Source of the DNA: Escherichia phage vB_EcoM_P54
Direction: 5' to 3' (one strand)
Sequence record: PV390658.1
DNA length: 64,000 nt
The notes beneath the pieces are model-generated. The model ran no database searches, was not told the origin of the DNA, and saw only the letters and a list, made by a program, of their open reading frames with translations. The position numbers and the translations under genes were made by a program. Each line of letters starts with the position of its first letter. The stretch's first letter is position 1. This document shows, in pieces, positions 1-25,817 of the stretch.

Positions 1-1851
1 ACCTCTACAGATATGGAAGAATGGCTCTTCTAAGTCCTGCTTCTCAAATGGTGAGATGTCTGCTGCAACATTCATATGGAAACTGTTTGTAAAATATTCC
101 TTATCAGAAACGCCTTTGATAACGCCAAACATATCTCTGAACTGTTTTAGCTGAGTTCCACACAATGACTCTGCTGGAGTGCCATATACTGCATACAGGA
201 AGCCATCTTCATTCTTAAACTCTTCAGTTTTCATGTTAATGTATGCCAGAACATCGTATGCAAAACTAGAACTTCCAACTTCATGAAGTCGTTTACCTTC
301 AGCAAGAACAGATAGTTCATCAAGCGCAGTAACCCCAAAAGAAGCTGTGAAGGACTTCACGATATCCCAACCAACCTTGTCAGTAGGTTTCTTAGTCCCT
401 TTGTACAGACCACCTTGTGTGAATGCAAGAGGGTTAGAACTTGCTGGCATATTAGCAATCATTTCGTAGCGTTTCTTGTGGAAGCTGCGAATCATCTCTA
501 GGTACTTATCAAGCTCTTTCCAGAAATCTAAACCATTCTCTTTAGAATACTGGTAAATCATTGGCAAGTTCAAAGATACAGCACCAATGTTAGCACGTCC
601 AACGTAGAACTCTTCTCCATTCTCGTTAAGATATGGGGATAAGAAAGCTCTGCAACCCATCGGTGAAATTACCTTGCCAGAACGCTCAAAAGCCTCTGCT
701 ACAGCACCATGACCAGATACACTTAAGAAGTCTGGATACATTGCTTTAGAGCAACACTCAATAGCTTTACTGTACAGTTGGCCTTGACAGATATTCTCAT
801 TGTGTCTCTTCTGGTCATGAATATAAACCAGTTTAGGGAATACAACAGGCTTCTTGCTCTTACCTTGTCCATTCATGCGAACATCAAGAATGGTGTTTGC
901 AATCATGTATTGTAGTCGGTTGTCTTCATTAGACATGTCTGAGTCAAGTAAACCAAATGTTAAAGTTGTGAATGCGAAATCACCACGGCTACAAGGTACA
1001 GTGTTTAGCTTCATCTCTAGTGACTGGAAGCCCTGAGTTAATTCAAGCTGTAGCTGCTCCATGACATAATTATGGTAATGTTCTTTAGGAATACCGTAAG
1101 ATGCTGCTTTCTCAGCATGATAGCGTAGAGACTTCTTAGCATACGGTACAAGCACCTTATCAATCTCTGCTAAAGTAAAACCACCAAATTGCTGTGCAGT
1201 TGCTGAAAGAACTACATCACCGATAACTTGTAAGGCTGACAGTACAGACTTCGGTTCACAGTATTCGATGCCAGACATTTCAAAACCACCTTTCAGTACT
1301 TTACCAATGTCAAACAGGCAACAGTTGATACCACCAAAAATTAGGTCTCTTAAGTCATGGATGTAGATAAACCCTTTTTCAATGGCTTCGAGTTCCTCTG
1401 GTGTTAAATGGTATTGTTTAAAGATTTCTTTAGTCAGATAGCCACGAATAATTGAACCTTTTGTAGAAATTAAACTGCTGTCAAAGTTAGCATTTTCACG
1501 GTCACCTAAGAAGAGTGTGTCTTTAGTCTTTTGGTAAAGCTCATCCCAATTTTGAGCAACCTCTTTACGGTAATTTCTATATGTTGAGTAAGACTCATAA
1601 ATCTCGTGATTGACTTCTGCCAAAGCACCCTCAACAATACTGTGAATGTCATTTACCGAGATGAGCAAATTATTCTGCTTAGTGGACTTTACCAGAATCC
1701 TCATAAATGCTGACTCAAGAGCTTGGGTAACATCTGGTGGAAGTTCTTTATACCCAACCCTGTTAGCTGACTTAGTTACTGCTGCTAAAACTTTTTTGAT
1801 ATCAGGTTCTTCAAGTGAGCCATTCTTTTTAATAATCTGTACTTTGTTCAT
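1..1851 (-). CDS. nrdD: anaerobic ribonucleoside-triphosphate reductase NrdD (class III), N-terminal ~617 codons; 3' end lies beyond the window start
   Basis: Minus-strand frame open from ATG at 1851..1849 to the window edge, so absent from the ORF track. My translation starts MNKVQIIKKNGSLEEPDIKKVLAAV (ATP-cone) and near the edge reads YFTNSFHMNVAADISPFEK, matching the T4 NrdD segment WYTNSFHVSVEENITPFEK as I recall it. Confidence 0.8.
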   Translation of the reverse strand, partial: MNKVQIIKKNGSLEEPDIKKVLAAVTKSANRVGYKELPPDVTQALESAFMRILVKSTKQNNLLISVNDIHSIVEGALAEVNHEIYESYSTYRNYRKEVAQNWDELYQKTKDTLFLGDRENANFDSSLISTKGSIIRGYLTKEIFKQYHLTPEELEAIEKGFIYIHDLRDLIFGGINCCLFDIGKVLKGGFEMSGIEYCEPKSVLSALQVIGDVVLSATAQQFGGFTLAEIDKVLVPYAKKSLRYHAEKAASYGIPKEHYHNYVMEQLQLELTQGFQSLEMKLNTVPCSRGDFAFTTLTFGLLDSDMSNEDNRLQYMIANTILDVRMNGQGKSKKPVVFPKLVYIHDQKRHNENICQGQLYSKAIECCSKAMYPDFLSVSGHGAVAEAFERSGKVISPMGCRAFLSPYLNENGEEFYVGRANIGAVSLNLPMIYQYSKENGLDFWKELDKYLEMIRSFHKKRYEMIANMPASSNPLAFTQGGLYKGTKKPTDKVGWDIVKSFTASFGVTALDELSVLAEGKRLHEVGSSSFAYDVLAYINMKTEEFKNEDGFLYAVYGTPAESLCGTQLKQFRDMFGVIKGVSDKEYFTNSFHMNVAADISPFEKQDLEEPFFHICRG

Positions 1852-1870
1852 TATTGCCCCTTTACATGCT

Positions 1871-1891
1871 AAAAAGGTCTCCGAAGAGACC
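1871..1891 (-). terminator. rho-independent terminator
   Basis: GGTCTC-cgaa-GAGACC hairpin followed by a U-run on the minus strand. Confidence 0.55.
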
Positions 1892-1899
1892 CTTTCATT

Positions 1900-2106
1900 T
1901 TAAATCTTTTTAGAAAACTTCGAAAAGAGTTCTCTTAGTTTTTCAGTGATGCCTAACTGTATCTCTAATATTTCAAAGATAACCCATATTAGCATGGCTC
2001 CAAACAATGAACCTTGTTCAAAATCAGCAAATAGGTTAATAACAAGCATACCAATCACAATAACTGGTGCATCAACAACCAAACCTTCCCAAAGGCGTTT
2101 AAGCAT
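1900..2106 (-). CDS. small hydrophobic protein (68 aa), hypothetical
   Basis: ORF track 1900..2106; hydrophobic segment VVDAPVIVIGMLVINLF; sits between NrdH-like gene and nrdD. Confidence 0.35.
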   Translation of the reverse strand: MLKRLWEGLVVDAPVIVIGMLVINLFADFEQGSLFGAMLIWVIFEILEIQLGITEKLRELFSKFSKKI

Positions 2107-2341
2107 TGTTCACCTCTGACATAAAATTCTGTAGCGTTCCAACAGGTTCTAGGTTTTGACCATCAGTTTTCATGATGAGTGGCATCTGACGAACTGGCAT
2201 CTGTGCAATATCCATCAGGTCTGACAGTTCATAATCCTGCCCTAACATTCTCACAACATGGTCAATACCACGAGCTTTTGCAAAATTCTTTGCAGTCTCA
2301 CACTGAGGGCATCCAGTTTTGGAGTAAATTACATAAGTCAT
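2099..2341 (-). CDS. nrdH: glutaredoxin-like redoxin (NrdH/thioredoxin fold)
   Basis: 80 aa; N-terminal YSKTGCPQCETAK with CPxC redox motif; directly downstream of nrdB. Confidence 0.65.
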   Translation of the reverse strand: MTYVIYSKTGCPQCETAKNFAKARGIDHVVRMLGQDYELSDLMDIAQMPVRQMPLIMKTDGQNLEPVGTLQNFMSEVNNA

Positions 2342-3414
2342 TAAGGAACCTCTAAAAATCCACTATTCAAATCATCTACAACAGTATTCAATAAATACGC
2401 ACCGTTCTGTTGCTCCTGATTAGCATTCTGCTCTTTATCAATTTCCATCTTCTTAATCATATACTTCAAAGGTGGTTCTTTAGGAGCTACAAAATCTCTG
2501 GGAATGCCAAACATATCATACAGTGGGGCAGCATTATAGTAAACCCACTCATGAAGAAGCTTTGTATTTAATCCAACTACAGCGCGTCCTTCGGAGAAGA
2601 TATAATACGACCATTTCTCTTCGCTTTCAACTACTTCATCTAAGATTACTTTAATCTCTGGAAGAATTTGTTGGAAAGCTTTTTGCCACTCATCATCTCT
2701 TAAAGTTTCTTTTAAAACTTCAATATCAATTTTAGTGTGAAGGATTTCATCAAGCATAATTTTCTGGACAGCTTGAGCAATACCCTGAAATTTATCTTGA
2801 GCATCAAGTGCAAAAGTACATGCAAAGGATGCCATAAAGGATATACCTTCCAGTGCAGTCACTGCAAATAGACCTTTTAGAATCACTTTATGGAAGTGCA
2901 AAGGGTCTTTATCCAGAAGTGAGTCACGGACATAACTCAGTCGATAGTTTATGCCTTCATCTAGTAATTCTTCAAGAACACGATTCACAGTTTTTAATCG
3001 GTCTTGCACAGCAATATTCTGGTTAATCTCATCTAAGATTGTTTCAGGGTTTTTAATACATTGCCTTACAATCTCCGAGTAAGTGAGGGCATGTAGGTTT
3101 TCAATCTCAGACTGCTTCATAATTGCAGTTGCATAAATGTCATCAGAGATGAATGGTGCAAAGGCAAACGCTAAACTTTTAGCAACTTGAGTATCTGCTT
3201 CCCATTGCCACTTAAGAATCTCAAGCATTACACCTGACATTGATGCTGGTACACTCTCAAAATCAAGACGTGATTGTTCAAAAGGGAACTCATCTTCTGA
3301 CCAGTCTTGTGCTTTTTGTTGTTTATATAGTTCAAAGATTTTTGGGTAGTGTTTATTAAGTGAGTCGAATGTTTTTCTCTCACCACCTAAAAAGATTGGG
3401 TGTTGGTTAATCAT
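2341..3414 (-). CDS. nrdB: ribonucleotide reductase class Ia beta subunit
   Basis: ORF track 2341..3474; diiron-type RNR small-subunit-like sequence; I place the start at ATG 3414 (MINQHPIFLGG) which has an AAGGAG RBS and abuts the upstream ORF stop. Confidence 0.85.
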   Translation of the reverse strand: MINQHPIFLGGERKTFDSLNKHYPKIFELYKQQKAQDWSEDEFPFEQSRLDFESVPASMSGVMLEILKWQWEADTQVAKSLAFAFAPFISDDIYATAIMKQSEIENLHALTYSEIVRQCIKNPETILDEINQNIAVQDRLKTVNRVLEELLDEGINYRLSYVRDSLLDKDPLHFHKVILKGLFAVTALEGISFMASFACTFALDAQDKFQGIAQAVQKIMLDEILHTKIDIEVLKETLRDDEWQKAFQQILPEIKVILDEVVESEEKWSYYIFSEGRAVVGLNTKLLHEWVYYNAAPLYDMFGIPRDFVAPKEPPLKYMIKKMEIDKEQNANQEQQNGAYLLNTVVDDLNSGFLEVP

Positions 3415-3668: not shown

Positions 3669-3723
3669 AGTTTCTCCAAAGTTAATTTTAGAGGGTCTTT
3701 TACGACCCTCGTAGTTATTAAAA

Positions 3724-5958
3724 CTAAACACCACAACCCTCGCAATAAGCATCTTGCAGTGCAGATTTACCTACACCAATGCGGCTGTTGAGATAGTACA
3801 TGGTTTTCATACCTACTGAGTTGGCATAAATCATATACTTCAAAGCTTGAGCCAATGATACCTTCTTAGCTTTTGCGTAGTCAACATAGAAATCTGAAGA
3901 GATAGCTTGACCAGTGAACTTTTGAACAATTGCATAACAATCAATCAGGTCAAAGGTGTCAATATCCCAAGCAATTTCATAGACATACTTCAACTCTTCA
4001 TAATCTGGAACAATAAACAGTACGTTACCAGTTGCAGACTTTTTAGTTAAAATAAAGTCACGAATTGGATACAAGCCATTTGTCGTATTAGTTGCCAGTG
4101 AAGAACTCTCATTAGGCATGTAAGCTTCTAATACAGAGTTACGGATTCCACCATTTTCTTTAATACGTTGTGCTAAGTCATCCCAATCATAACGAAGTTT
4201 TGCATCATGCTTCTCATCAATCTTCCTGTTAGCTGTCTTCGGAGGAACCCAACCTTCAGGATACTTAGTGAACTGCATATACTCAGGTACACCACGTTCT
4301 TTAGCAAGTCTTAAAGAAGCTTCGTGTAAGTAGTAAGAGTGCATTTCAGCAAGCTCATGAAGCTTCGTCTTACCTGCTCTTGAAGAATAGTTCACGTAAT
4401 TTTTTGCAAGGTAATGAGCCACATTTGTAAGGCCAATACCAACAGAACGACGCTTCTGAACATGGTTGCGCATCGACGGATACGGATAATCCATAAGGTC
4501 AATAACGGAGTCAACCATTGCAAGAGCATAATAAGCAACGTCAGCGTATTCATCTTCTGAAATTCTCCCTGCAACCAAACTAGCTAGGAAGCAAAGAGCT
4601 ACCTCACCATCCTCTTTCACAGCATCATCTCTGTAAAGGTCTGTCTCTTTCTCAAAGCCGTACACTGGCAACACAATTTCCATACAAAGATTTGACATCT
4701 TCAAAGGTTCTTTAAATGGTGTATGTGTGTTTGCATTATTTGTGAAGAATGGGTACACACGTCCTGTTGCATAACGCTGCTGGATAAACAGTTTAGCAAT
4801 TTCACGAGCCTTCACCCGTCTGTGCTTCACACCTGAATGCACTGCATGACCAACTGCCATAGCAAACTCATCAGCAGATGCTGTGTAGAACATGTCATAG
4901 AGTTTTGGTGCATCCTTGTAAGAGAATAGCAACCAGTCTGTATCATATTGAACACACTGCCAGAAATAATCATTTGTACCAAATGAGTAGTCCATCTCGT
5001 TAATACGTTTCGAAGGAACCGTTGTAGGGTGCTTCAAACGCAGTAAATCTTCAATCTGCGGGTCTAGAGCGGTGTAGAAGTTGTTAGCTGAACCACCACG
5101 GCTCTTTTGTTTGTTTGCCTCTACAGATGAACGTACAAGCTTGTAATAAGGTAGTTTACCCATATGCTCAATAGTATTTTGACGGATACCATCACCAATA
5201 GTGCGAGTCTCCATCAGCATCCCAATACCAGCTTGCTTTGTAGTCATATCATAAGCAACCTTTGCAGCAATACCTAGAGATTCAGCAGTATCATTCGCCT
5301 TAATCAAACAGCATGACGCATAACCTGATTTAGTAGCTCTTAAACCATTCAGATAAGGCGTAGGAGCATTAATCTTAAGGTCAGATAGGTAAGTGTATAG
5401 CTTGATAACATCTTGCAGTCTACGGTGCTTTGGTTGCTTCTCAAAGGCTTTCATAGCCATACCCATAAACATAAACTGTGGTGACTCAAAAAGTCTTCCC
5501 GTTTTAATATCACGGATACCATACTTGTCTCTGAACTGTTTCAGGACTGCATAACCATAAGAGATATCTTTTGAGTGCACAATGTATCCTTGCAGGTATT
5601 CAAGCTCTTCCTGAGAATAGTCCATCTTCTCCCAAAGTCCTGCTCTCTCCATATTTTTAACGAAGGTAACCAGCGTAGGAACCTTAGTAAAGCCTCCAAA
5701 GGCTTCTTTGTAGATAATCCCTAGAAGTAGCCGTCCAGCCATGTCTGAGTACTCTTGAGTTTGTTTATCAACACAAACATCAATCATAGCTTGGTGCATC
5801 TCTTTTGTAGTGCAACCTTCATAGACACGTTTCATGGCTTCCATAGTGACTTCTGACCAAATAATACCACGCTTATCTGCCCATGATGCCCACTTATTCA
5901 GTCTTTCTGGGTCAAAGCTTACTACTGTACCGTTTGATTTTTTAATTGTCTTAATCAT
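3724..5958 (-). CDS. nrdA: ribonucleotide reductase class Ia alpha subunit
   Basis: 744 aa; N-terminal ATP-cone (IKKSNGTVVSFDPERL), SNLCMEIVLP region, C-terminal redox tail CEGCGV. Confidence 0.9.
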   Translation of the reverse strand: MIKTIKKSNGTVVSFDPERLNKWASWADKRGIIWSEVTMEAMKRVYEGCTTKEMHQAMIDVCVDKQTQEYSDMAGRLLLGIIYKEAFGGFTKVPTLVTFVKNMERAGLWEKMDYSQEELEYLQGYIVHSKDISYGYAVLKQFRDKYGIRDIKTGRLFESPQFMFMGMAMKAFEKQPKHRRLQDVIKLYTYLSDLKINAPTPYLNGLRATKSGYASCCLIKANDTAESLGIAAKVAYDMTTKQAGIGMLMETRTIGDGIRQNTIEHMGKLPYYKLVRSSVEANKQKSRGGSANNFYTALDPQIEDLLRLKHPTTVPSKRINEMDYSFGTNDYFWQCVQYDTDWLLFSYKDAPKLYDMFYTASADEFAMAVGHAVHSGVKHRRVKAREIAKLFIQQRYATGRVYPFFTNNANTHTPFKEPLKMSNLCMEIVLPVYGFEKETDLYRDDAVKEDGEVALCFLASLVAGRISEDEYADVAYYALAMVDSVIDLMDYPYPSMRNHVQKRRSVGIGLTNVAHYLAKNYVNYSSRAGKTKLHELAEMHSYYLHEASLRLAKERGVPEYMQFTKYPEGWVPPKTANRKIDEKHDAKLRYDWDDLAQRIKENGGIRNSVLEAYMPNESSSLATNTTNGLYPIRDFILTKKSATGNVLFIVPDYEELKYVYEIAWDIDTFDLIDCYAIVQKFTGQAISSDFYVDYAKAKKVSLAQALKYMIYANSVGMKTMYYLNSRIGVGKSALQDAYCEGCGV

Positions 5959-5975
5959 TTTTAAATCCTACAGGT

Positions 5976-6343: not shown

Positions 6344-6668
6344 GGTATTTCTCCAAGTTTCTTTTTAGATATAACCAACCATAGTCAGTTCTTTCTACAC
6401 CCATGAAGAGTGGAGCCATCACAACTTTCCCAAAAGTATTTCTGTGTAGGCAGATTTCAAAGGAATACTCTTTCTCGATATCAATCCCATATTTGTACAG
6501 GACTGCTTTTAAAACTTGTTCATTATCCAGAAGTGTATCTGGAGTCTCACCATACTTCTCAAGTAACGGGTCATACATAAACACCGTCATAGAGATATTG
6601 TAGTTTGAGAAGTGGCTCTTCTGAGCCACACCTTCTTTATTAATGTTCTGTGAATCCATTATAACCAA
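6336..6668 (-). CDS. hypothetical protein (110 aa)
   Basis: ORF track; overlaps neighbours by a few nt in operon-like packing. Confidence 0.45.
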   Translation of the reverse strand: MVIMDSQNINKEGVAQKSHFSNYNISMTVFMYDPLLEKYGETPDTLLDNEQVLKAVLYKYGIDIEKEYSFEICLHRNTFGKVVMAPLFMGVERTDYGWLYLKRNLEKYRV

Positions 6669-7395
6669 CCCCTTTTAACCAGCACTTCAGGTTATTAGCA
6701 TCATAATTCAGTTTCGGGTATGAGGTTACATGGAACTGCTCACCATCATAGTAGACAATATCTGCAATCCATAGCCCATTCTCTTTACAGAAATCTTTAT
6801 CTGCTTTAGAGGTAATTGGATTAACTTCTACAAAACCATCTACACCCAAATCCTTTAAGCTACCTACAATACCTTTGCAGATAACGCATGTCTCAGATAC
6901 TACCACAAAAAGTTCTTGGCTTTCAAGCTCTACAATGTATTCACCAAGCTGTACTTTAGGGAGATTTGATTGCTTCATAATCTTCCCATCTGCTGCACGG
7001 ACAATTGCATACCATTCTTTACCATCAACTACTGACATTCTGATGATACACTCTTGACCAGTACGCTTCTCAATATCTGCAAGACGTTTTAAAGCTTCTT
7101 CATAGTCGTCTGTGTACTTTAGGTCATTATTATGGCAAACAGCTTCCATAGCGCCATTGTGGTCATGTTGTGACAGATAAATTAGACCGTCAAGAACATA
7201 TTGCAAATCTGCCTGAGCATCCAGTGTCTCAATGGGGTCTTTCTCTTCAATTGCTTTTACAAGCTCTTTTGCTTCTTCAAGCATACACAGAGACTGGGAT
7301 TTCAAAGATTCCCAATACTCATCACTGTAAGGTTGCTTTTGGGTGTTTCCGCAACGAAGATTCCAGTTTTTTACTGATTCTCTTGAGTTAAACAT
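6640..7395 (-). CDS. MazG-like NTP pyrophosphohydrolase domain protein with extra C-terminal domain
   Basis: 251 aa; N-terminal region EAKELVKAIEEKDPIETLDAQADLQYVLDGL resembles the all-alpha MazG/NTP-PPase fold (from memory); C-terminal ~130 aa unassigned. Confidence 0.45.
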   Translation of the reverse strand: MFNSRESVKNWNLRCGNTQKQPYSDEYWESLKSQSLCMLEEAKELVKAIEEKDPIETLDAQADLQYVLDGLIYLSQHDHNGAMEAVCHNNDLKYTDDYEEALKRLADIEKRTGQECIIRMSVVDGKEWYAIVRAADGKIMKQSNLPKVQLGEYIVELESQELFVVVSETCVICKGIVGSLKDLGVDGFVEVNPITSKADKDFCKENGLWIADIVYYDGEQFHVTSYPKLNYDANNLKCWLKGVGYNGFTEH

Positions 7396-7639: not shown

Positions 7640-8137
7640 TCAAGCACAATTTGCTTTCATTACCTTATGGATTCTTTTTTCAGCATCTTCATAAGTTTCT
7701 TTAGTGATAAACTTAATTGCTGCAATATTGGCATTGTAGAAGAGTCTGAGCTTAGAGTCAATCCTTTTTGTCATTACATCGAATTTATGTTGAAGGTTTG
7801 CTTCGCCATAAACTAGACCGCCTTTTGTGTAGTAGGTTTGAATAATGTAAAAGTCAAAAAATTCTTTTCCAAAGCTCTCAATATCTTTTTTAATATACTC
7901 AGAAGAAGTCTCATAAGTCATCCAATCACTCTCCTTAGTGACTACCTTCTTCCGAGTCTTACCAGCAACTTTTCTTTTGGTCACGCTATTAAGCTGTTTC
8001 TTTCCAATATAATATTGTCCGGTTTTCTTACAGTATACTAAATAGACAAAACCAAAATGTTTAGCGGGGTCAACTTCCCCGCATAAAGATATCCAATGAC
8101 CATAGGTAGGACAATTGCCAAATCCTTTAATCTTCAT
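7640..8137 (-). CDS. GIY-YIG family endonuclease-like protein (possible homing endonuclease)
   Basis: 165 aa; FGFVYLVYCKKTGQYYIGKK fits the GIY-(10-11)-YIG spacing. Confidence 0.5.
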   Translation of the reverse strand: MKIKGFGNCPTYGHWISLCGEVDPAKHFGFVYLVYCKKTGQYYIGKKQLNSVTKRKVAGKTRKKVVTKESDWMTYETSSEYIKKDIESFGKEFFDFYIIQTYYTKGGLVYGEANLQHKFDVMTKRIDSKLRLFYNANIAAIKFITKETYEDAEKRIHKVMKANCA

Positions 8138-9167
8138 TCATACACGGCTCCCAATTATATTTCTTAAAAGAGAAATTATCTTTTGGATTTCTCTCTTGAT
8201 ATGCTATCCAGAAATGCTGTTCCATTAACTCTAATGGCGTTTTGGTAACAGTCTGTCCATCCCATGACACATAGGTATAAGAGTCTTTTTTAGCATAGAG
8301 TTCATAGATAGCATCAAGGCACTCTTTATATGTCTCTTTACCATCTAAAGCATTCATTACAGCTACTTTGCCAGCACCTTTAAGGCCGAAGTAGTTGTCT
8401 GCATTATCTCCAGCAACAGCCTGATAACACAAGAATTTAAAACCTACACCAACTGTTTTTGCAGCTTTTGGTTTTGATTTGATAGGACAATCCCAGATAT
8501 CACCAACATTATTGTCAGCAATAAAAATTAGTGGTGACTTTTCATAAGTCATATCAATACAATAAGTCCCTTCAGCTTGTCGAAGGTCTTTGTCAATACT
8601 CATAAGAGCAGCTTTTTTACCCATCTTTTCAGCTTTAGCAATTACGATTGAATCAGCTTCGAATCCACCCTTTAAGAGTTTGAACTCTGGTCTGGATAAA
8701 AGATATTCACGACAAGCGACTAAATGTGTTGGTGTGACAGCATCTTTACGGTTACCTTGATATTGGTGCTCAAGACCTTTAACGTCTTTATGTTTATGTA
8801 CACCTTTCTCTGTTAAGTAACCTACCCAAGTTCTTTCTTTGCCAACAATCTTAAGCCATTCCTGAAGAACCTGCTGAGTAGCCATGATAGCTTCTTTTTC
8901 ACTCTTAGCTTCTTTCCAAGTCTGTCTTTCCCATTCATCTTCATCAAATGCTAGGCCAAGCTCTTCTACAAGGGTTCTCTGGTCTGCTAACCATCTTGCA
9001 GCATCTTTTGCGTTATCAAATGATTCAGATTCTTCTGCTGTGAGCTTATTGACATATTTATATTTTGCTTTCTCAACTACACAAGCACCTTTATAGGCAA
9101 TACTGTCAGAGTCAATAAAGACATGTGTAACTGAATCGGGAAGTTTTTTTAATGTGTACTTCTCCAT
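8127..9167 (-). CDS. 5'-3' exonuclease, FEN-1/RNase H-like
   Basis: 346 aa; N-terminal VFIDSDSIAYKGAC and later SIDKDLRQ acidic clusters resemble the T4 RNase H / T7 gp6 flap-nuclease pattern; GGAGAG RBS. Confidence 0.6.
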   Translation of the reverse strand: MEKYTLKKLPDSVTHVFIDSDSIAYKGACVVEKAKYKYVNKLTAEESESFDNAKDAARWLADQRTLVEELGLAFDEDEWERQTWKEAKSEKEAIMATQQVLQEWLKIVGKERTWVGYLTEKGVHKHKDVKGLEHQYQGNRKDAVTPTHLVACREYLLSRPEFKLLKGGFEADSIVIAKAEKMGKKAALMSIDKDLRQAEGTYCIDMTYEKSPLIFIADNNVGDIWDCPIKSKPKAAKTVGVGFKFLCYQAVAGDNADNYFGLKGAGKVAVMNALDGKETYKECLDAIYELYAKKDSYTYVSWDGQTVTKTPLELMEQHFWIAYQERNPKDNFSFKKYNWEPCMNED

Positions 9168-14366: not shown

Positions 14367-14367
14367 A

Positions 14368-14790: not shown

Positions 14791-14963
14791 GTAAGCCTCT
14801 TTTAAGTAACTATTAAGTTTTAATCTTTTATCTTAACGTATTCTATACGTTATACTTTAAAGCTTTTTAAAAGCTATTAAATAATCTTTTAAGAGTTTTA
14901 AAGTATCTGTATAGTTAAACTGTTAAGTAACCTTTTAAGTAAAAACCCACTTCGCAAAGATTA

Positions 14964-14990
14964 ACACCTTGTCAAGTACATTGTCAACTT
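14964..14990. promoter_or_regulatory. conserved 25 nt box ACACCTTGTCAAGTNCNTTGTCAAC in the divergent region
   Basis: Near-identical to the box at 57651-57675; contains two TTGACA hexamers on the minus strand. Confidence 0.45.
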
Positions 14991-15047
14991 GCTTTTTATA
15001 ATTTTTTGCAGTAATGTATGAGGTTAATGATTTTAGAGGGAGTAAAA

Positions 15048-17747: not shown

Positions 17748-17763
17748 TTAGTATTGACAAGGT

Positions 17764-17797
17764 GCTCATGGAAGAGTACCTTATACTATATCTTGTA
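17764..17797 (+). promoter_or_regulatory. putative promoter with TTGACAAGGTG box upstream of the small-gene cluster
   Basis: TTGACAAGGTG at 17764-17774; TATACT 22 nt downstream. Confidence 0.4.
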
Positions 17798-17808
17798 TAG
17801 GAGGTCAC

Positions 17809-18027
17809 ATGACACTTTCAGAGATTGAAGTTCAGTTGCAATGTGCAGGTTATTCTCAAAAAGAGATTGAAGGGATGTTTATTGTTCTTTGCAGTAGCTG
17901 TAGGAATTTGAAGGTAAACCCTGAAGTTCTACGTAGAGTAGATATCTTTATTGCTGGAGATAAAATCGCAAAAGATAAGACAGGCTACTTAAAAGGTGAG
18001 CGTGTAAATATTGAGAGTTTACTATGA
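17809..18027 (+). CDS. small protein, paralog A of a tandem pair (72 aa)
   Basis: GGAGG RBS; shares MTL start and C-terminus DGKIAKDKTGYLKGERVNIESLL with paralog B. Confidence 0.5.
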   Translation: MTLSEIEVQLQCAGYSQKEIEGMFIVLCSSCRNLKVNPEVLRRVDIFIAGDKIAKDKTGYLKGERVNIESLL

Positions 18028-18233
18028 GCCACCGTGGAAGAACCCATGCAGCGATGATGAAAGGTGCTTCAAAGGAAACTATCAAGAACCGTAAGCAGAA
18101 GTTGTTTGAGAGAATGAACAGGTTAATTGACAATTCATCTCTTTCAGGTTCTGAGAAGGTTTTCTTGAAAGGTAATCTGAAAAGCATTGCACAAGAACTT
18201 ATTGATATTGAATATTGGAGACATCAAAAATGA
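18024..18233 (+). CDS. small basic protein (69 aa) between the paralogs
   Basis: ORF track; start overlaps the stop of the upstream gene. Confidence 0.4.
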   Translation: MSHRGRTHAAMMKGASKETIKNRKQKLFERMNRLIDNSSLSGSEKVFLKGNLKSIAQELIDIEYWRHQK

Positions 18234-18448
18234 CACTTGCAGACGTTATTCAGCAACTTCACGATAATTGCTACACTCCTGAGTTGATTCAAGAGATGCT
18301 TATTGTGGTGATGCCTAGTAAGTTCTTAAAAGGTTTTAATCGTGAGGCTTTAAAGGTCGCACATATCCTTATCGTTGACGGTAAGATTGCAAGAGACCGT
18401 ACAGGTGTTCTTAAGGGTGAACGCATTGATATCTTGGAATTGTTATGA
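18230..18448 (+). CDS. small protein, paralog B of a tandem pair (72 aa)
   Basis: Start refined to ATG 18230 (MTLADVIQQL) with GGAGA RBS; C-terminus DGKIARDRTGVLKGERIDILELL. Confidence 0.5.
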   Translation: MTLADVIQQLHDNCYTPELIQEMLIVVMPSKFLKGFNREALKVAHILIVDGKIARDRTGVLKGERIDILELL

Positions 18449-18605
18449 ATAGGTTATATAGTCTCTGGGGAAGGATGGGTAAAGACTCTGATTGGAACCT
18501 ACTAAAAACAAACGTAAAAAGTAATGAGATAGCGTACTACAAAATTCATTACTACAAAACTTTCAGAGAGCTTGAGTATCGTGAACAACAGACAGGAGAA
18601 GTATT

Positions 18606-18842
18606 ATGTGGAAATCAGTAATTGTGCTTGGTGTTATTTTTCTAGCTGGCTGCAACCCTTCTTATGAAGATAAAAATGCTTCTTATAGCCTCCCACCAGA
18701 GATGCAAGATTGCAAAGTCTATAAGTTGCATGGTGATGCCATAAGTAGAGATATTGTTGTTGTCAGATGTCCAAACTCTCAAACAACAACATCTTATAGT
18801 TATGGAAAAAATGGTCAATCACACACTACGGTTATTGAGTGA
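18606..18842 (+). CDS. putative lipoprotein (78 aa)
   Basis: Signal peptide MWKSVIVLGVIFLAGC with lipobox LAGC. Confidence 0.5.
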   Translation: MWKSVIVLGVIFLAGCNPSYEDKNASYSLPPEMQDCKVYKLHGDAISRDIVVVRCPNSQTTTSYSYGKNGQSHTTVIE

Positions 18843-18852
18843 GGTTTTCACG

Positions 18853-19059
18853 ATGGAAGTCCTAGTAAACTATATCTATTGTTATGATGTTGTTCACTCC
18901 ACTACAACCGTAGCTCAACGTAACCCAATTGTCCCACGAGAAGGTGAATTGGTTCGCATTGAGGGTTGGACTTACACTGTGGAAAGTATCATTCATAAGT
19001 TTGATGTTGCTGGTGATGTTCAAGTTATCGACGTAGAGATTGGTGGTAAGAGAAAATGA
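18853..19059 (+). CDS. hypothetical protein (~68 aa)
   Basis: ORF track 18754..19059 overlaps the lipoprotein gene; internal ATG 18853 has a GAGG RBS. Confidence 0.4.
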   Translation: MEVLVNYIYCYDVVHSTTTVAQRNPIVPREGELVRIEGWTYTVESIIHKFDVAGDVQVIDVEIGGKRK

Positions 19060-19215
19060 AACCTAAGCAAACAATGACAGATGCAACCTTCACAGTACAC
19101 AGCTTCGAAAGGTTGCACATCAAAGATACAAAAGATACACCAAAATGCGTTGTACATTTTATTAAAAGGAGTAGTAACATGTCCTATATGAAATCTGACA
19201 AAGGCAATAGCACAA

Positions 19216-19408: not shown

Positions 19409-20512
19409 ATGACAATACTGTACAAACAAAATAAAGACGGCTCTTTTAACGTCTGGTCATGCGTTGCTGTAGGTGACAAAGTTATTACAACCTACGGTAA
19501 AGAAAATGGCAAGATGATGTTTGAAGAGTACACAGCAGAACCTAAAAACATCGGTAAAAAGAATGAGCGTAACGCTGAACAGCAAGCTCTCTTTGAAGTT
19601 GCTGCTAAGTATAAAAAGCAGGTTGACCGTAAAGGCTACGCTTACACAAAAGAGTCTGCACAGAATACTGAGAAGGTAGGTGTACAGCTTGCTCATGATG
19701 CTGCAAAGGTTAGTCATGCAAAGTATCTGAAGTTCCCTGCTGATGCTCAACCGAAACTTGATGGTGTCCGTTGTAGGATTTCAAGGCACTTGAGTATTGG
19801 CAGTGTATTTACAGCATATTCTCGTGAGAATACTGTTTACAAAATCCCTACTGAACTAATACCTGACATTATGGCAATGTTAAGGCTCCACAAAGATGTT
19901 GATGAATTTGATGGAGAGATTTATGCTCATGGGTGGGACTTAGAAGATATCGTCTCCATGATTAAAAATGAAGACAATCCTGACAGACACTTGCTCAAGT
20001 TTTACTGGTACGATATCTGTGACAGTACTAAGACGTGGCCTGAGCGTAGAGATATTATTGAGACTTCACCATTGAATGACTTTAGAGATGGCTGTAAAGT
20101 TGTTCCTGTTAAGTCTCGTCGTGTAAATTCTTGGGAAGAGTTTGATGAAGCCCATGATAAGTGGGTTGAAGCTCAGTTTGAAGGTGCAATGTACCGTTCA
20201 ATCTCTGAAGACTCCTTCTATGAGTGTTGTCACCGTTCATACTTCTTGATTAAGCACAAGAAGATGCACACTGAAGAGTTTAAAGTGACTGGTGTAAAGA
20301 CTGATAAGCGTGGTCATGGCAAGTTCGTTGTAGAGACTCTTCCTAACGTCTTTGTAGATGTCTCATGGAAGACTACTCATGAGAAGAAACAGTATCTTGC
20401 TGAGCATCCTGAAGAGTTTATCGGGAAACCTTTAACGGTTCAGTTCCAGAAGATGACTCGTAAGGGGTCTTTACAGTTCCCTGTTGGGCTGGTTATACGA
20501 GATTATGAATAA
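19409..20512 (+). CDS. ATP-dependent DNA ligase
   Basis: Adenylation motif I KLDGVR; size and layout like T7-type ligases; start set at ATG 19409 behind GAGGA. Confidence 0.8.
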   Translation: MTILYKQNKDGSFNVWSCVAVGDKVITTYGKENGKMMFEEYTAEPKNIGKKNERNAEQQALFEVAAKYKKQVDRKGYAYTKESAQNTEKVGVQLAHDAAKVSHAKYLKFPADAQPKLDGVRCRISRHLSIGSVFTAYSRENTVYKIPTELIPDIMAMLRLHKDVDEFDGEIYAHGWDLEDIVSMIKNEDNPDRHLLKFYWYDICDSTKTWPERRDIIETSPLNDFRDGCKVVPVKSRRVNSWEEFDEAHDKWVEAQFEGAMYRSISEDSFYECCHRSYFLIKHKKMHTEEFKVTGVKTDKRGHGKFVVETLPNVFVDVSWKTTHEKKQYLAEHPEEFIGKPLTVQFQKMTRKGSLQFPVGLVIRDYE

Positions 20513-20518
20513 AAGTTG

Positions 20519-20546
20519 TTGACATAGAAAATTTGGTGAGTATACT
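20519..20546 (+). promoter_or_regulatory. sigma70-like promoter (TTGACA-16-TATACT) embedded in an 8 bp inverted repeat
   Basis: TTGACA at 20519-20524, TATACT at 20541-20546; GGTGAGTA (20535-20542) pairs with TACTCACC (20566-20573). Confidence 0.5.
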
Positions 20547-20619
20547 GAGCAGCATAAACCAACGGGTACTCACCAGCATCACTTAAGAGTCTTCTAAGAA
20601 GGTTTTTAAGTGATGCTCG

Positions 20620-20689
20620 GTCAGGTATGGTGCGGTGGTGTAAGGTGGTGTCAGGTGTAGTATGGTGCGGTGATGTGAGGTATGGGTAG
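20620..20689 (+). repeat. pentanucleotide-periodic tract (GGTNN x14)
   Basis: Reads GGTCA GGTAT GGTGC GGTGG TGTAA GGTGG TGTCA GGTGT AGTAT GGTGC GGTGA TGTGA GGTAT GGGTA. Confidence 0.75.
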
Positions 20690-20767
20690 TTAGTCTCAGC
20701 TACATTAAAATGAGACTTACCTTTTTAAAAGGTCTTTAAACAGGGTATTTTAATAAGGTAGTGTCAG

Positions 20768-20829
20768 GTTAGGTTAGGTGCGTTTTGGTAGGGTAGGGTA
20801 AGGTTCGGTAAGGTATGGGTGGATGGTAG
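20768..20829 (+). repeat. pentanucleotide-periodic tract (GGTNN x12)
   Basis: Reads GGTTA GGTTA GGTGC GTTTT GGTAG GGTAG GGTAA GGTTC GGTAA GGTAT GGGTG GATGG. Confidence 0.75.
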
Positions 20830-20908
20830 TAGCCACGTTAAAAATCTACCAAGTTTCTAAAGAGTCTTCTGTTGAGGGTTCTTTACAAACAACTTAACAA
20901 TCAACTAA

Positions 20909-21514
<606 letters not shown>

Positions 21515-21516
21515 TT

Positions 21517-21957
21517 ATGAATACAAAAGCATTAGCAGCAAAGTTTAGTTACGGTGACACTGTATCACATTCTGAGATGGATACCTTCTTAGGTATTGCG
21601 AAGCCAACTTATCAAGGTGACATTGTTAAGTACGAAGATGAAATGAAGGCTTATGCACTTACACGTCTAAACCGACTTGAGAAGTTTATTGAGAAGCTCC
21701 TTAAAGAAGAGAAGATTTATCTGGTTGCTTCAATGGGTGTTGGTTATCGTGTGGTTGAGCCTAAGCATCAAGCAACTATTGCAAAACGCAAAATGTCTGG
21801 TAAGATTGGTCGTGCTTTAAAGCAAGCCACTCAAGCAATTGAGAATGTGAACACTATGGCACTTAGCCATCAAGAACGTTCACGACTGATTGAACAGCAA
21901 AACCATTTAGCTGCTATGAAAGCTAACATTAACAAGCAACGTAGAAAACCTTTCTAA
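21517..21957 (+). CDS. hypothetical protein (146 aa), cassette gene 2
   Basis: ORF track; followed by a terminator hairpin at 21969-21992. Confidence 0.5.
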   Translation: MNTKALAAKFSYGDTVSHSEMDTFLGIAKPTYQGDIVKYEDEMKAYALTRLNRLEKFIEKLLKEEKIYLVASMGVGYRVVEPKHQATIAKRKMSGKIGRALKQATQAIENVNTMALSHQERSRLIEQQNHLAAMKANINKQRRKPF

Positions 21958-21968
21958 GTTGACTAGGT

Positions 21969-21992
21969 AGCCTCTTCGGAGGCTCCTTTTTA
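21969..21992 (+). terminator. rho-independent terminator after cassette gene 2
   Basis: AGCCTC-ttcg-GAGGCT hairpin followed by CCTTTTT. Confidence 0.65.
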
Positions 21993-22020
21993 AAAGGTCT
22001 TTAAGAGGGTCTTTTAATAA

Positions 22021-22090
22021 GGCTCGGCAATGTTCGGCATGGTCTGGTATAGTCCGGTGCTGTTCGGCGTGGTAAGGTGAGGTATGGGTA
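22021..22090 (+). repeat. pentanucleotide-periodic tract (GGYNN x14)
   Basis: Reads GGCTC GGCAA TGTTC GGCAT GGTCT GGTAT AGTCC GGTGC TGTTC GGCGT GGTAA GGTGA GGTAT GGGTA. Confidence 0.75.
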
Positions 22091-22158
22091 GTTAATCGGA
22101 GCTACATTAAAATTCGATTACATCACTTAAGAGTCTTCTAAGAGGATTTTTAAGTGTT

Positions 22159-22218
22159 GTGAGGCGAGGTACGGTCGGGTATGGCTATGTCTGGTATGGT
22201 TTGGTATGGAAGGATGGC
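22159..22218 (+). repeat. pentanucleotide-periodic tract (GYNNG x12)
   Basis: Reads GTGAG GCGAG GTACG GTCGG GTATG GCTAT GTCTG GTATG GTTTG GTATG GAAGG ATGGC. Confidence 0.7.
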
Positions 22219-22260
22219 AGCAGCCTTATAAAAAATCTGCCAAATAAGCTATAAAATCTG

Positions 22261-22295
22261 TTGACAAGTCAGGTGTTATAGCTTATTTTTATACT
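22261..22295 (+). promoter_or_regulatory. putative promoter with TTGACAAG box flanked by an 11 bp inverted repeat
   Basis: TTGACA 22261-22266; candidate -10 TATTTT (17 nt spacer) or TATACT (23 nt spacer); ATAAGCTATAA / TTATAGCTTAT brackets the -35. Confidence 0.4.
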
Positions 22296-22333
22296 CAATG
22301 TAATACAAAATTTAATATAACTTTGAGGTCATT

Positions 22334-22717
22334 ATGAAAAAGATTTTATTAGCTGCTGCAATGGTTATGGCAATGAATTTACCAGTCAATGCAACAGAAC
22401 TCCCAAATGTGGACTTATCAGGTGTTCCAGAAGACACTTGCCAGATTGTTAAAGGTGTTGCTCTAGCTAATGGTGAGCTACTTAAACCAATCTCTGAAGA
22501 ATCTTTGACAGAGATGACTGATAAGGTAACTGACTATCAGTATCGTGTTCTTGCAGAGTATTTCCTGCAATCTGCAAACATTAAAGAGAAACACCGTGAT
22601 GATATTGATGTACAGGCTATGCTCAACCACCGTATCCAGTTTAAAGAAGACTTGATGCAAAAAGCTATGTATGGTGTTGAGTATTTCTTAGAAAACAGAA
22701 GCTGCACAGGTATTTGA
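22334..22717 (+). CDS. putative secreted/periplasmic protein (127 aa)
   Basis: N-terminal signal-peptide-like MKKILLAAAMVMAMNLPVNA; GAGGT RBS. Confidence 0.5.
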   Translation: MKKILLAAAMVMAMNLPVNATELPNVDLSGVPEDTCQIVKGVALANGELLKPISEESLTEMTDKVTDYQYRVLAEYFLQSANIKEKHRDDIDVQAMLNHRIQFKEDLMQKAMYGVEYFLENRSCTGI

Positions 22718-22718
22718 T

Positions 22719-22931
22719 ATGGCTCTTAAAAAGTTACATCCCAGAAGCGGTTATGGTAAGATAATTGACGATACAGACGGCTTTACAGTCTTTACAGTTA
22801 TCTGTCAAGATGATTCACAGATTGAAAAGGCTCTTGATGATTATCTTAACGATGAACGTGAAAAGGTTAGAGCTACAAACATAGATTCATTGATTGACAC
22901 TTCACGCAAACGGAAGAAGAAAGATGAATGA
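22719..22931 (+). CDS. hypothetical protein (70 aa)
   Basis: ORF track. Confidence 0.4.
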   Translation: MALKKLHPRSGYGKIIDDTDGFTVFTVICQDDSQIEKALDDYLNDEREKVRATNIDSLIDTSRKRKKKDE

Positions 22932-23223
22932 GACTTTTGACCCTTATGCTCCACAAGATGATTGGGAGGCTGACAGAGAGGCTGAAATGGAGAGTTATAT
23001 TTGCCCAATGGATGTAGACGAAATGAGAGACTTCGTTGCACATCGTTTTAAGAGAGAGATTAAATCCAGAGGTCTTTCTCAAGAACAAGTTGCTAAAATT
23101 TGTGGTATCTCTCAAGCTCGTGTATCCAACATAATCAACCTCACTGGTAATGTCTCTCTTGAGTTTATGTTGGAAGTATGTGAAAAATTTGGTGTTAACT
23201 TTAATTTAAGGCTGGCAGATTAA
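22924..23223 (+). CDS. helix-turn-helix DNA-binding protein (XRE-like)
   Basis: LSQEQVAKICGISQARVSNIIN is a classic HTH; start set at ATG 22924 overlapping the upstream stop. Confidence 0.5.
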   Translation: MNETFDPYAPQDDWEADREAEMESYICPMDVDEMRDFVAHRFKREIKSRGLSQEQVAKICGISQARVSNIINLTGNVSLEFMLEVCEKFGVNFNLRLAD

Positions 23224-23224
23224 T

Positions 23225-23584: not shown

Positions 23585-23597
23585 TAGGTGATGAATT

Positions 23598-24113: not shown

Positions 24114-24374
24114 ATGAAAATTGAGCACTGCTATGAGTCTGATGGAACACCTATACGTTGTCCACATTGTGGGTGTACAGACTTGCAAGGTGAAGTTCAT
24201 GTGATTGTTAATGGTCATATAGCTGAAGAAAGTACTACATGTGTTGGTTGTGGTGAGCATCTATCATTCTGGGCTTACGGTTCATACCAACCTACACCGC
24301 ACTTAATCTACCATAGCAATAAAGCTGTGAAGAGTGTTATCAACTGGTTCATTAAGAAAGGATTTACAAAATGA
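24114..24374 (+). CDS. small zinc-ribbon protein (86 aa)
   Basis: CPHCGC ... CVGCGEH Cys pairs. Confidence 0.4.
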   Translation: MKIEHCYESDGTPIRCPHCGCTDLQGEVHVIVNGHIAEESTTCVGCGEHLSFWAYGSYQPTPHLIYHSNKAVKSVINWFIKKGFTK

Positions 24375-24916
24375 TTAAATTAATCTTTGCAAGTGGTGAA
24401 AATGGTGAGTTTGGTACTCCAACTGGTATGCCGTGGCCTCGACATAAACAGGACATGCAAGAGTTTAAGAGACTCACTAAAAATAACTTAGTAGTTATGG
24501 GTAATGAGACTTTTAAGACTCTGGGAAGTAAGCCTTTACCAGAACGTGCAAACCTCATCTTAACAAACTCTGTACCATATTTAGGCATAGATTTTGGCAA
24601 AGATGATGTAATGTATGCTAAGGCCAACAAAGAATCCTTTGGAGCATTTTTGAAGTATCTTGATAGTTCTATTGATGAAGATGTCTTTGTAATTGGTGGT
24701 GCAGGTGTTCTTGTCGATGCTTTGCCGTATGCTGATGTAGTTTTCCATACAGTTTTCCATAAAGTTACTGAAGAGGCCACTGTGTATTTACCTTTTGAAA
24801 ACTTCTTCGATAAACTGTATGATAACCGTGTATTTGCAAAGGTGCAGTCAAGACCCTCAGATGATGGTAAAGCAACCTTTGAAATCTATGTTCCACAAGT
24901 AAAAGGACACTTTTGA
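24371..24916 (+). CDS. frd: dihydrofolate reductase
   Basis: 181 aa; LIFASGENGEFGTPTGMPWP resembles the DHFR N-terminal signature; immediately upstream of thymidylate synthase as in T4 frd-td. Confidence 0.7.
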   Translation: MIKLIFASGENGEFGTPTGMPWPRHKQDMQEFKRLTKNNLVVMGNETFKTLGSKPLPERANLILTNSVPYLGIDFGKDDVMYAKANKESFGAFLKYLDSSIDEDVFVIGGAGVLVDALPYADVVFHTVFHKVTEEATVYLPFENFFDKLYDNRVFAKVQSRPSDDGKATFEIYVPQVKGHF

Positions 24917-24917
24917 T

Positions 24918-25817
24918 ATGTCACAAGCTGATTTGAGTTACAAAAATATCCTGAACCATGTTTTATCCGTTGGTGAACTGCGTACTACACGAACTGGAGA
25001 TGTTATCTCTGCATTTGCTCCACCACAGTTTCGTTTTGATATGAGAACTGGTTTCCCACTCTTAACATCTAAACAGGTGTTTACAAGGCAAGTTATTGGG
25101 GAAGCTTTATGGTTCATGAATGGTGAGAACAGGCTTGGTGAACTCCGTTATCGCACTTGGGGTGAAAATGATGGAGAACGCTGGACTATCTGGTCAGATG
25201 ATTTTAAACGCTGGTTAAGCTCTAACTATTCTTCTGAACAAGATTGGTTAGAAGATGCAGGCGGAAGAATCTATGGAGTTCAGTGGAGAAACTTTGAAGG
25301 TCATAATGGTTGTGTTGTAGACCAGTTAGAAACCTTAGTAACGAAGATGAAGGGTGATATTACAGACCGCTACATGCTTGTTAATGCTTGGAATGCAGCA
25401 GATATTGCAGCTAACTCAATGGCTTTAGCACCTTGTCATGTTCTGTTTCAGGTTTATATCACTAATGAGGGTGAAGTTGACTTGCAATGGTATCAGCGTT
25501 CTGTAGACACCTTTTTAGGACTTCCGTTTAACATTGCATCTTATGGTTTTATTCTGGAAGTTCTTTGTAAGATGACTGGATACACTCCACGGTACTTGAT
25601 AGGTGTCTTTGGAGATACTCAGATTTATCAGAACCATATGAAGCAGGTTTATGAACTGATGAACAATGAAGAGTTTCATGCACCGACTTTTGAGATTGGT
25701 GTCCCACTTAACACTTTAAGTGACTTAAAACATCTCACTGCAAGTGATTTTATCGGTGGTATTAATAATTACCAACATGCAGGAAAGATTGAAGCACCTT
25801 TGTCAGTAGGTAAATAA
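24918..25817 (+). CDS. td: thymidylate synthase
   Basis: 299 aa; active-site region MALAPCHVLFQ (ThyA PCH motif), RTGFPLLTSK. Confidence 0.85.
   Translation: MSQADLSYKNILNHVLSVGELRTTRTGDVISAFAPPQFRFDMRTGFPLLTSKQVFTRQVIGEALWFMNGENRLGELRYRTWGENDGERWTIWSDDFKRWLSSNYSSEQDWLEDAGGRIYGVQWRNFEGHNGCVVDQLETLVTKMKGDITDRYMLVNAWNAADIAANSMALAPCHVLFQVYITNEGEVDLQWYQRSVDTFLGLPFNIASYGFILEVLCKMTGYTPRYLIGVFGDTQIYQNHMKQVYELMNNEEFHAPTFEIGVPLNTLSDLKHLTASDFIGGINNYQHAGKIEAPLSVGK

Follow-up and report, generated by a model that had tools for sequence, protein, structure and literature searches.

In this study, we analysed a 64,000-nt stretch (hereafter, the window) of the Escherichia phage vB_EcoM_P54 (PV390658.1), which covers 64 kb of an approximately 88-kb genome. 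We conclude, with a probability that we put at roughly 93%, that positions 1–25817 constitute the early region of a Felixounavirus, in which a T7-style replisome and genes for deoxyribonucleoside triphosphate (dNTP) supply are accompanied by an embedded type II Viral Interference Programmable Repeat (VIPR) system. Because a podovirus-like polymerase and primase-helicase, accompanied by nrd, td, and frd genes, were already reported for Felix O1 (Whichard et al. 2010; PMC3185647), the replication and nucleotide module as outlined in a preliminary description of this DNA is ordinary; it has been known since 2010 and nothing is added to it here. What the present analysis does add is the assignment of a single-stranded DNA-binding protein (SSB) with a C-terminal motif that it shares with the primase-helicase, corrections to existing annotation, and the recognition and decoding of the VIPR locus.

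The ICTV places phages in one genus at a nucleotide identity of approximately 70% or more. In megablast searches with three queries (1–25000, 25001–50000, and 50001–64000), all three segments matched Felixounavirus (Ounavirinae) records at 94%–98% identity and 95%–100% query cover, and by nucleotide identity the source phage belongs to this genus over the 64 kb compared. Among 50,697 phage records, 268 matched segment 1–25000, and the 184 with a query cover of 80% or more at 90%–99% identity are nearly all Felixounavirus phages of Escherichia, Salmonella, Shigella, or Citrobacter. Felix O1 itself is 93.5% identical to segment 50001–64000. The Felix O1-type affinity that the preliminary description offered is thus borne out, and the BLASTN comparison proposed along with it returned Felixounavirus records as top matches throughout rather than any unrelated group.

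The gene order of the module is identical to that in phages TP1, HMD-P10, and BPS15Q2, and the combination of this order with a cluster of 24 tRNA genes and contractile-tail genes is common to Felixounavirus and Ounavirinae phages (Felix O1, wV8, TP1, Bas63, SUSP1, and Moogle). Differences from Felixounavirus relatives consist of small indels and variable small open reading frames at 17822–18230 and 19060–19214, and vB_EcoM_P54 also carries its own set of guide sequences in the VIPR locus. In Salmonella phage BPS15Q2, the polymerase gene (15533–19034 in that phage) is split by an endonuclease VII-type gene and an HNH gene is inserted beside the exonuclease gene, whereas in vB_EcoM_P54 the polymerase gene is intact and the HNH insertion is absent. 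All of the replication and nucleotide genes named beforehand are present at 1–25817, as judged by Pfam, PHROGs, and, for the SSB, remote homology. From the gene layout, two early operons, one leftward and one rightward, would diverge from about 14.8–15.05 kb, where an intergenic region (14791–15047) corresponds to the site of divergent early promoters reported for Felix O1 (PMC3185647). The block ends with the stop codon of td at 25817.

The 285-residue product of the gene at 9230–10087 (− strand) is supported, by remote homology and a modelled fold, as a gp2.5-like SSB with a predicted role in DNA binding. Its acidic C-terminal tail (...DDEEDEDFDTED) ends in F-D-T-E-D. Sixty records were sampled evenly from 255 matches, and all the annotated ones call it a "hypothetical protein"; its close homologs occur in Ounavirinae-like phages only. 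The connection to the gp2.5 class was made solely by a library-wide search, in which a profile of close homologs, run against 1.84 billion representative proteins, retrieved 64 relatives, mostly of 200–245 residues. Among 48 aligned family members, five match the Pfam family SBB_T7 and two match Enc34_ssDNA-bd, weakly in both cases (PF21265 and PF10991, the gp2.5/Enc34 SSB family), and the 48-sequence profile aligns with T7 gp2.5 at 93.5% probability (hhalign, E 2e-7), including the IGNGS/IGGGS strand. An AlphaFold2 model built from the same 48-sequence alignment reached a mean confidence (pLDDT) of 86, with residues 1–220 above 95. The nine top Foldseek matches of this model in the PDB are all gp2.5-class SSBs at probabilities of 0.94–1.0, among them the DUF2815 protein 4klk, Enc34 5odj/k/l, T7 gp2.5 1je5, and 4jg2, after which the probability falls below 0.1; structure matches in BFVD agree with this fold. 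In published PhageMaP knockout data, gene 55 of phage Bas63, which is flanked by two small genes and the exonuclease gene exactly as the SSB gene is in vB_EcoM_P54, shows a fitness of −2.1 to −2.4 in MG1655, the same as that of the primase-helicase gene.

Several points weigh against this assignment. The protein itself yields no Pfam (E ≤ 0.01), PHROG-function, or PDB sequence match, and its direct profile aligns only weakly with gp2.5 (hhalign, 26%). The TM-scores to solved SSBs are modest (0.40–0.52, normalised to the target), and the confident AlphaFold2 model rested on an alignment that already held gp2.5-like relatives, while a first model from an 11-sequence alignment had a pLDDT of 49 and was discarded. 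The orthology of Bas63 gene 55 derives from gene order and a gene numbering identical with that of TP1, not from sequence, and the PhageMaP authors labelled that gene "DNA helicase/primase*". These weak matches, the poor first model, and the PhageMaP label could also be read as signs that the protein has some different essential function in the replisome, for example as a helicase loader, as a processivity factor, or as a partner of the primase-helicase, in a phage that uses the host SSB. We consider this unlikely, as the wider family profile reaches T7 gp2.5 and its intermediate members match both the SBB_T7 and Enc34 models, the nine best fold matches of the confident model are exclusively gp2.5-class SSBs, an acidic tail with a conserved Phe is a hallmark of gp2.5, and no other SSB candidate exists among the genes examined. 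The acidic-tailed SSB proposed in the preliminary description is therefore upheld by the wider profile, the structure model, and the published fitness, although the protein does not directly pass the family models. The main text of Lopes et al. (2010), on remote homologs of gp2.5, does not mention Felix O1. If the assignment is true, more than 250 GenBank records list as a "hypothetical protein" what is the essential SSB of phages widely employed in therapy and biocontrol, and an annotation gap would be filled in a genus widely used for the biocontrol of Salmonella and E. coli.

The C-terminal ends of the SSB and of the primase-helicase resemble one another. Within the SSB family, F281, the Phe four residues from the end, and T283 are invariant, and the primase-helicase ends in ...DADDCPFETE. 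In vB_EcoM_P54, the two proteins end in DFDTED (SSB) and PFETE (primase-helicase). The corresponding endings in three divergent metagenome relatives, the SSBs of which are 44%–62% identical to that of vB_EcoM_P54, are PFKTE and PFRTE (L009), NFETE and EFQTA (L010), and PFETE and PFETE (L011). In phage T7, the tails of gp2.5 and gp4 each consist of an acidic stretch with DF at its end, and both tails bind the polymerase. Because of this precedent and of the co-varying F-x-T-E ending that the two proteins share, we infer, by analogy, a common docking site for both tails, which would attach to the polymerase of vB_EcoM_P54 as they do in T7. The position of the Phe differs between the two systems, standing at the very end of T7 gp2.5 and gp4 and four residues from the end in vB_EcoM_P54. 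It is somewhat more probable than an even chance that the newly assigned SSB and the primase-helicase carry a co-evolving acidic-(P)F-x-T-E peptide and compete for one site on the polymerase, in a variant of the tail switching of T7 gp2.5 and gp4; against this stands the fact that the sequence itself gives no sign of binding between tail and polymerase. Taken with the SSB assignment, the tail motif provides a testable picture of how the replisome holds together.

The remaining replisome enzymes were compared with those of T7. The family A DNA polymerase gene (15018/15048–17747, +; Pfam DNA_pol_A, PF00476; phrog_17) is uninterrupted and encodes 899 residues from the annotated start. T7 gp5 provides its sole PDB sequence matches (4e-11), with 22% identity over 364 residues in a tblastn comparison with the T7 genome; the N-terminal 485 residues yield no BLAST alignment to gp5, and the vB_EcoM_P54 enzyme is approximately 200 residues longer. 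The fused primase-helicase (10562–12547/12553, −; 661–663 residues) combines Toprim_2 and DnaB_C domains in one open reading frame (phrog_239) and is 28% identical to T7 gp4 over 592 residues (tblastn, E 2e-42). Together with the ATP-dependent DNA ligase (19373/19409–20512, +; Pfam DNA_ligase_A_M and OB_2; phrog_114), these enzymes fall in the same PHROGs as their T7 counterparts. The 5'-3' exonuclease (8127–9167, −; phrog_107, 4e-63) has no Pfam match and only weakly matches the 5'-nuclease motifs of Pol I. As phrog_107 takes in both T7 gp6 and T4 RNase H, the exonuclease is best described as FEN-type (the T7 gp6/T4 RNase H class) and not as T7-specific. The exonuclease would remove primers and the ligase would seal Okazaki fragments.

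The five component types of the T7 replisome (gp5, gp4, gp2.5, gp6, and gp1.3) are thus all found in vB_EcoM_P54, while the identity to T7 is 22%–28% at best. A T7-type replisome, as the preliminary description had it, holds for the polymerase, primase-helicase, ligase, and SSB, but the exonuclease is no more than FEN-type. The Felix O1 paper likened the polymerase to those of SP6 and T7 and the primase-helicase to those of T7-like phages, and it reported that no phage RNA polymerase is encoded (PMC3185647); therefore, the initiation of replication cannot be T7-like. The replication origin was not located, which counts against the reading given here, and the polymerase may use thioredoxin or another protein as its processivity factor.

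The large subunit of a class III (anaerobic) ribonucleotide reductase is encoded by nrdD at 1–1851 (−; Pfam NRDD 2e-91 with an ATP-cone; TIGR02487 above cut-off). As had been noted, this gene is cut by the window edge: its open frame exits at the window start, leaving 617 residues visible and about 97 C-terminal residues missing relative to the 2145-nt gene of TP1. The class Ia enzyme is represented by nrdB (small subunit, 2341–3414, −; Pfam Ribonuc_red_sm 3.7e-34) and nrdA (large subunit, 3724–5958, −; Pfam Ribonuc_red_lgN/lgC, lgC 5e-91, with an ATP-cone). Adjacent to nrdB, an 80-residue redoxin of the glutaredoxin fold with a CPQC motif (2099–2341, −; Pfam Glutaredoxin 3.9e-7) is likely to be the reductant for NrdAB. 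It had been called NrdH-like; a small CPQC redoxin is indeed present, but the NCBIfam models for NrdH and glutaredoxin match it only far below their cut-offs. The set also includes a MazG-like pyrophosphohydrolase with an extra C-terminal region (6640–7395, −; Pfam PRA-PH 6e-6; phrog_2144, 6e-102), a deoxyribonucleoside monophosphate (dNMP) kinase (12749–13492, −; Pfam DNMK 9e-23; phrog_139), dihydrofolate reductase (frd, 24371–24916, +; Pfam DHFR_1 1e-22), and thymidylate synthase (td, 24918–25817, +; Pfam Thymidylat_synt 2e-72, with PDB matches), the last uninterrupted by an intron. The dNTP supply of the phage would be self-sufficient, with NrdAB and the phage glutaredoxin acting aerobically and NrdD anaerobically, while the dNMP kinase, the thymidylate synthase and dihydrofolate reductase, and the MazG-like pyrophosphohydrolase would complete it.

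In T4, the same enzyme functions (nrdA, nrdB, nrdD, nrdC/H, td, frd, and gene 1) occur beside replication genes in a myophage, and in this respect the earlier label "T4-type" stands. It describes gene content only, because nrdD, nrdA, nrdB, frd, and td are just 25%–34% identical to their T4 counterparts, the best PDB match of NrdA is E. coli R1 (3e-126, 426 bits), and the T4 and E. coli enzymes score alike for thymidylate synthase. For the nrd, td, and frd genes, cellular homologs are no more distant than those of T4, which weighs against a T4 affinity for this part of the region. The dCMP hydroxymethylase and dCTPase genes of T4 gave no BLAST match in the T4 parts examined.

Gene content that mirrors T7 (polymerase, gp4, gp2.5, gp6, and ligase) on one side and T4 (nrdA/B/D, td, frd, and dNMP kinase) on the other might suggest a recent chimera, in which a T7-like replisome cassette and a T4-like nucleotide cassette were transferred horizontally into a myophage. 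This appears very unlikely. The identity to T7 and T4 is only 22%–34%, NrdA and thymidylate synthase stand at least as near to cellular enzymes, and none of the group I introns that T4 carries in td, nrdB, and nrdD are present. Moreover, the order of the polymerase gene, genes without known function, the dNMP kinase, primase-helicase, SSB, exonuclease, GIY-YIG, and MazG genes, and nrdAB is kept in relatives whose SSBs are only 44%–62% identical; conservation to this extent in divergent relatives suggests an old, lineage-specific arrangement. The word "mosaic" used for the module is apt in that T7-like gene content stands beside T4-like gene content, but this was reported in 2010 and the reading as a recent chimera is disfavoured.

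The VIPR locus was absent from the preliminary description. It occupies 20512–22334, with the ligase gene on one side and the small downstream genes on the other, and is complete, comprising a promoter, two vrRNAs, vipr, vap1, a terminator, and two more vrRNAs. VIPR systems have been described in two preprints (bioRxiv 2026, 10.64898/2026.04.26.720920 and 10.64898/2026.04.26.720927), according to which a primitive RAMP protein, Vipr, forms polymers on vrRNAs composed of 9–16 YNNGG repeats and a tail with a pseudoknot. In their account, pairing with double-stranded DNA is by the NN dinucleotides, every third base being skipped, and transcription of the target is silenced. The same preprints demonstrated vrRNA expression and a target-silencing Vipr ribonucleoprotein for SUSP1 and reported that most guides in the SUSP1 clade aim at a satellite phage; the role of Vap1 as the VIPR accessory protein comes from the first of them (10.64898/2026.04.26.720920). 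We identify 20512–22334 as a type II VIPR system on the basis of its sequence, and expression and silencing in vB_EcoM_P54 are predicted.

A sigma-70-type promoter-like site, TTGACA-16-TATACT (20519–20546, +), matches the consensus at 11 of 12 positions, lies upstream of vrRNA1, and is identical in sequence in Moogle and SUSP1. Each vrRNA, as delimited by array and tail analysis, consists of YNNGG repeats and a tail, all on the + strand: vrRNA1 (20616–20726) has 14 repeats (20616–20685) and a pseudoknotted tail, vrRNA2 (20759–20853) has 12 (20759–20818), vrRNA3 (22023–22120) has 13 (22023–22087), and vrRNA4 (22160–22245) has 10 (22160–22209). Between the two pairs lie vipr (20927–21514, +), encoding a RAMP-like guide-RNA-binding protein of 195 residues that is 98% identical to SUSP1 Vipr, and vap1 (21517–21957, +), 99% identical to the SUSP1 gene adjoining vipr. 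The vipr family carries no name and no Pfam domain, the arrays have no Rfam match, and vipr, vap1, and the neighbouring genes have no PADLOC match; in a comparison with the PDB, however, the vipr-family profile matches 36pp, "SUSP1 Vipr protein", at 1e-77, and the G-loop of Vipr reads GxGDxRPRFGRF. The SUSP1 system has the same two genes flanked by vrRNAs, the same YNNGG repeats (10–14 per RNA), the pseudoknot tail, and the promoter. The vrRNAs are arranged 2+2 around the genes in vB_EcoM_P54, as opposed to 1+3 in SUSP1 and 2+3 in Moogle, and the NN guide sequences of vB_EcoM_P54 differ from those of SUSP1.

The arrays were recognised in the gaps at 20.5–20.9 and 21.96–22.33 kb as four G-rich tracts in which GG recurs at 5-nt intervals and after each of which comes a hairpin; the rest of the 64 kb has no such periodic arrays, and they occur on the + strand only. 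We compared 23 arrays, bounded by conserved flanks, from six phages (vB_EcoM_P54, TP1, HMD-P10, BPS15Q2, Moogle, and SUSP1), and all 23 are exact multiples of 5 nt (50–90 nt). Within the pentamer, position 1 is T or C (0.91 and 0.09, respectively), positions 2–3 are random, and G stands at positions 4 and 5 with frequencies of 0.80 and 0.98, respectively; the NN positions are wholly different even between phages that are approximately 95% identical overall. The pseudoknot of the tail, which was drawn by eye from these same tail sequences, is 99% paired over 11 distinct tails with compensation at eight of nine pairs, compared with 28%–44% in slid controls. In IMG/VR, at least 120 contigs contain seven such pentamers; among the 120 array contigs listed, 56 encode a homolog of the 195-residue Vipr (tblastn), no other protein of the module recurred, and three others matched a single locus each. 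Those listed without a detectable Vipr homolog may encode a Vipr of divergent type or have one of the other array architectures that the preprints mention. Many unrelated viral contigs listed carry far longer YNNGG tracts, of up to 131 consecutive pentamers (L039, 6298–7012; also L034, 1934–2824).

Read with a skip of one nucleotide, three of the four guides match one E. coli satellite family. An exact scan of IMG/VR with 12 dinucleotides of the vrRNA1 NNx pattern matched a single contig, and in this contig and an identical locus of E. coli JNEC-KY173, 27 of the 28 NN bases agree with a site (TCACAGATGGCTGGTAAGGGTCAGGTTATGGCTGAAGAGCT) in the tape-measure gene of a satellite. The predicted target of vrRNA2 (AGTCAGTTTTACGCATTAAGTAGTAAATCCAAGAC; 22/24 NN) is situated about 520 bp away in the same gene, which encodes a tape-measure protein (Pfam TMP_3). 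The NN bases of both matches fall on codon positions 1–2, and only the 1-nt skip gives high matches, skip lengths of 0, 2, and 3 producing background matches. The remaining guides weigh less favourably. The vrRNA3 guide, for which an exact 11-dinucleotide scan of IMG/VR returned no match, finds a counterpart in some variants of the satellite only (L136 and L137; 22/26 NN, 85%), in a 107-residue gene upstream of the tape-measure gene, and vrRNA4 is without a target in an exact 9-dinucleotide scan of IMG/VR and in the satellite loci. Self-targeting is not indicated, as the best match within the window is at most 75%, below the 80% threshold of the preprint.

The JNEC-KY173 locus is a yecE-integrated element of approximately 11 kb in a DUF72 gene (NZ_AP045169.1; L135, 11035–23007), with genes for a serine recombinase, a Dit-like baseplate protein, the tape measure, a helix-turn-helix (HTH) protein, and a Dam-type methylase. 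This element is likely to be the satellite targeted by the vrRNAs, and related tape-measure genes were found in 478 of 5,426 complete E. coli genomes. The satellite and phage tape measures are 27% identical overall, with the first ~45 residues and the C-terminal residues nearly identical, a pattern to be expected if the satellite makes use of its helper's tail. By the mechanism of the preprints, Vipr protomers would polymerise on vrRNAs of about 100 nt, the NN bases would read double-stranded DNA, and the guides would silence the tape-measure operon of a satellite that is integrated in E. coli and imitates both ends of the phage tape measure. In SUSP1, too, the targets follow the 1-nt-skip rule and belong to a satellite element of E. 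coli. The matches reported here independently confirm the published 1-nt-skip code in a phage other than SUSP1. A working-looking VIPR with guides that can be read from the sequence should be useful for studies of phage–satellite conflict and for choosing Felixounaviruses for therapy.

That the arrays are instead a replication origin (R-loop or G-quadruplex priming after a strong promoter) or a protein-sponge RNA is scarcely credible, for although they lie inside the replication module with a near-consensus sigma-70 site upstream, the G-rich strand as the non-template strand, and two arrays on either side of a two-gene cassette in a manner recalling iteron-flanked initiator genes, the adjoining gene shares 98% identity with SUSP1 Vipr, the structure of which is solved, the build of the arrays is exactly that published for vrRNAs, and the NN dinucleotides match the satellite gene in codon register under the 1-nt-skip rule only, which chance cannot explain given about 1e-3 exact hits expected for the vrRNA1 scan (a rough estimate). 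Before the match to Vipr was found, a TRAP-like or CsrA-like sponge, primase-site arrays, Rho-terminator insulators, and boxA-type antitermination were considered, and all were dropped. Chi-like RecBCD decoys were also dropped, as an exact Chi site cannot fit the YNNGG register.

Two labels carried by genes of the early region appear to need correction. The gene at 7640–8137 (−), which overlaps the exonuclease gene, encodes a SegE-type GIY-YIG nuclease (Pfam SegE_GIY-YIG 2e-27), and the label "NAD synthetase" that it bears in relatives and in phrog_447 is probably wrong. It keeps its position in the relatives with SSBs of only 44%–62% identity. Its Bas63 ortholog shows negative fitness in MG1655 (−1.3 to −2.0), which is unusual for a selfish homing endonuclease; this cost could stem from polarity on the exonuclease gene, or the nuclease could have a real function, for example in the breakdown of host DNA together with the exonuclease. 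At the head of the leftward operon, two conserved genes (13554–14790, −; phrog_4251 and phrog_4039) encode proteins of 270 and 140 residues that have no Pfam or PADLOC match and are syntenic in distant relatives. The 270-residue protein (13554–14366, −) carries the database label "minor tail protein" (phrog_4251), which is doubtful and probably wrong; its counterpart, Bas63 gene 49, is dispensable, with positive fitness.

Other genes of the early region include one for a Cro/CI-type HTH transcriptional regulator (22924–23223, +; Pfam HTH_3 5e-11). Directly upstream of frd, an 86-residue CxxC protein (24114–24374, +) weakly matches the ECs_2282 zinc-binding family, and its Bas63 counterpart is labelled a Lar-like restriction alleviation protein with host-dependent fitness. 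Finally, the contractile-tail genes that had been described together with the replication genes are present, but they lie further right, outside 1–25817, with the tail sheath at 39314–40666 (−; phrog_205, 3e-123) and genes for the baseplate hub and wedge, tape measure, portal, and terminase elsewhere in the window. A large cluster of 24 tRNA genes is located at 49839–55490 (−), including two each for Met, Gln, Lys, and Ser and three for Leu, and both this cluster and the myophage structural module are as found for Felixounavirus.

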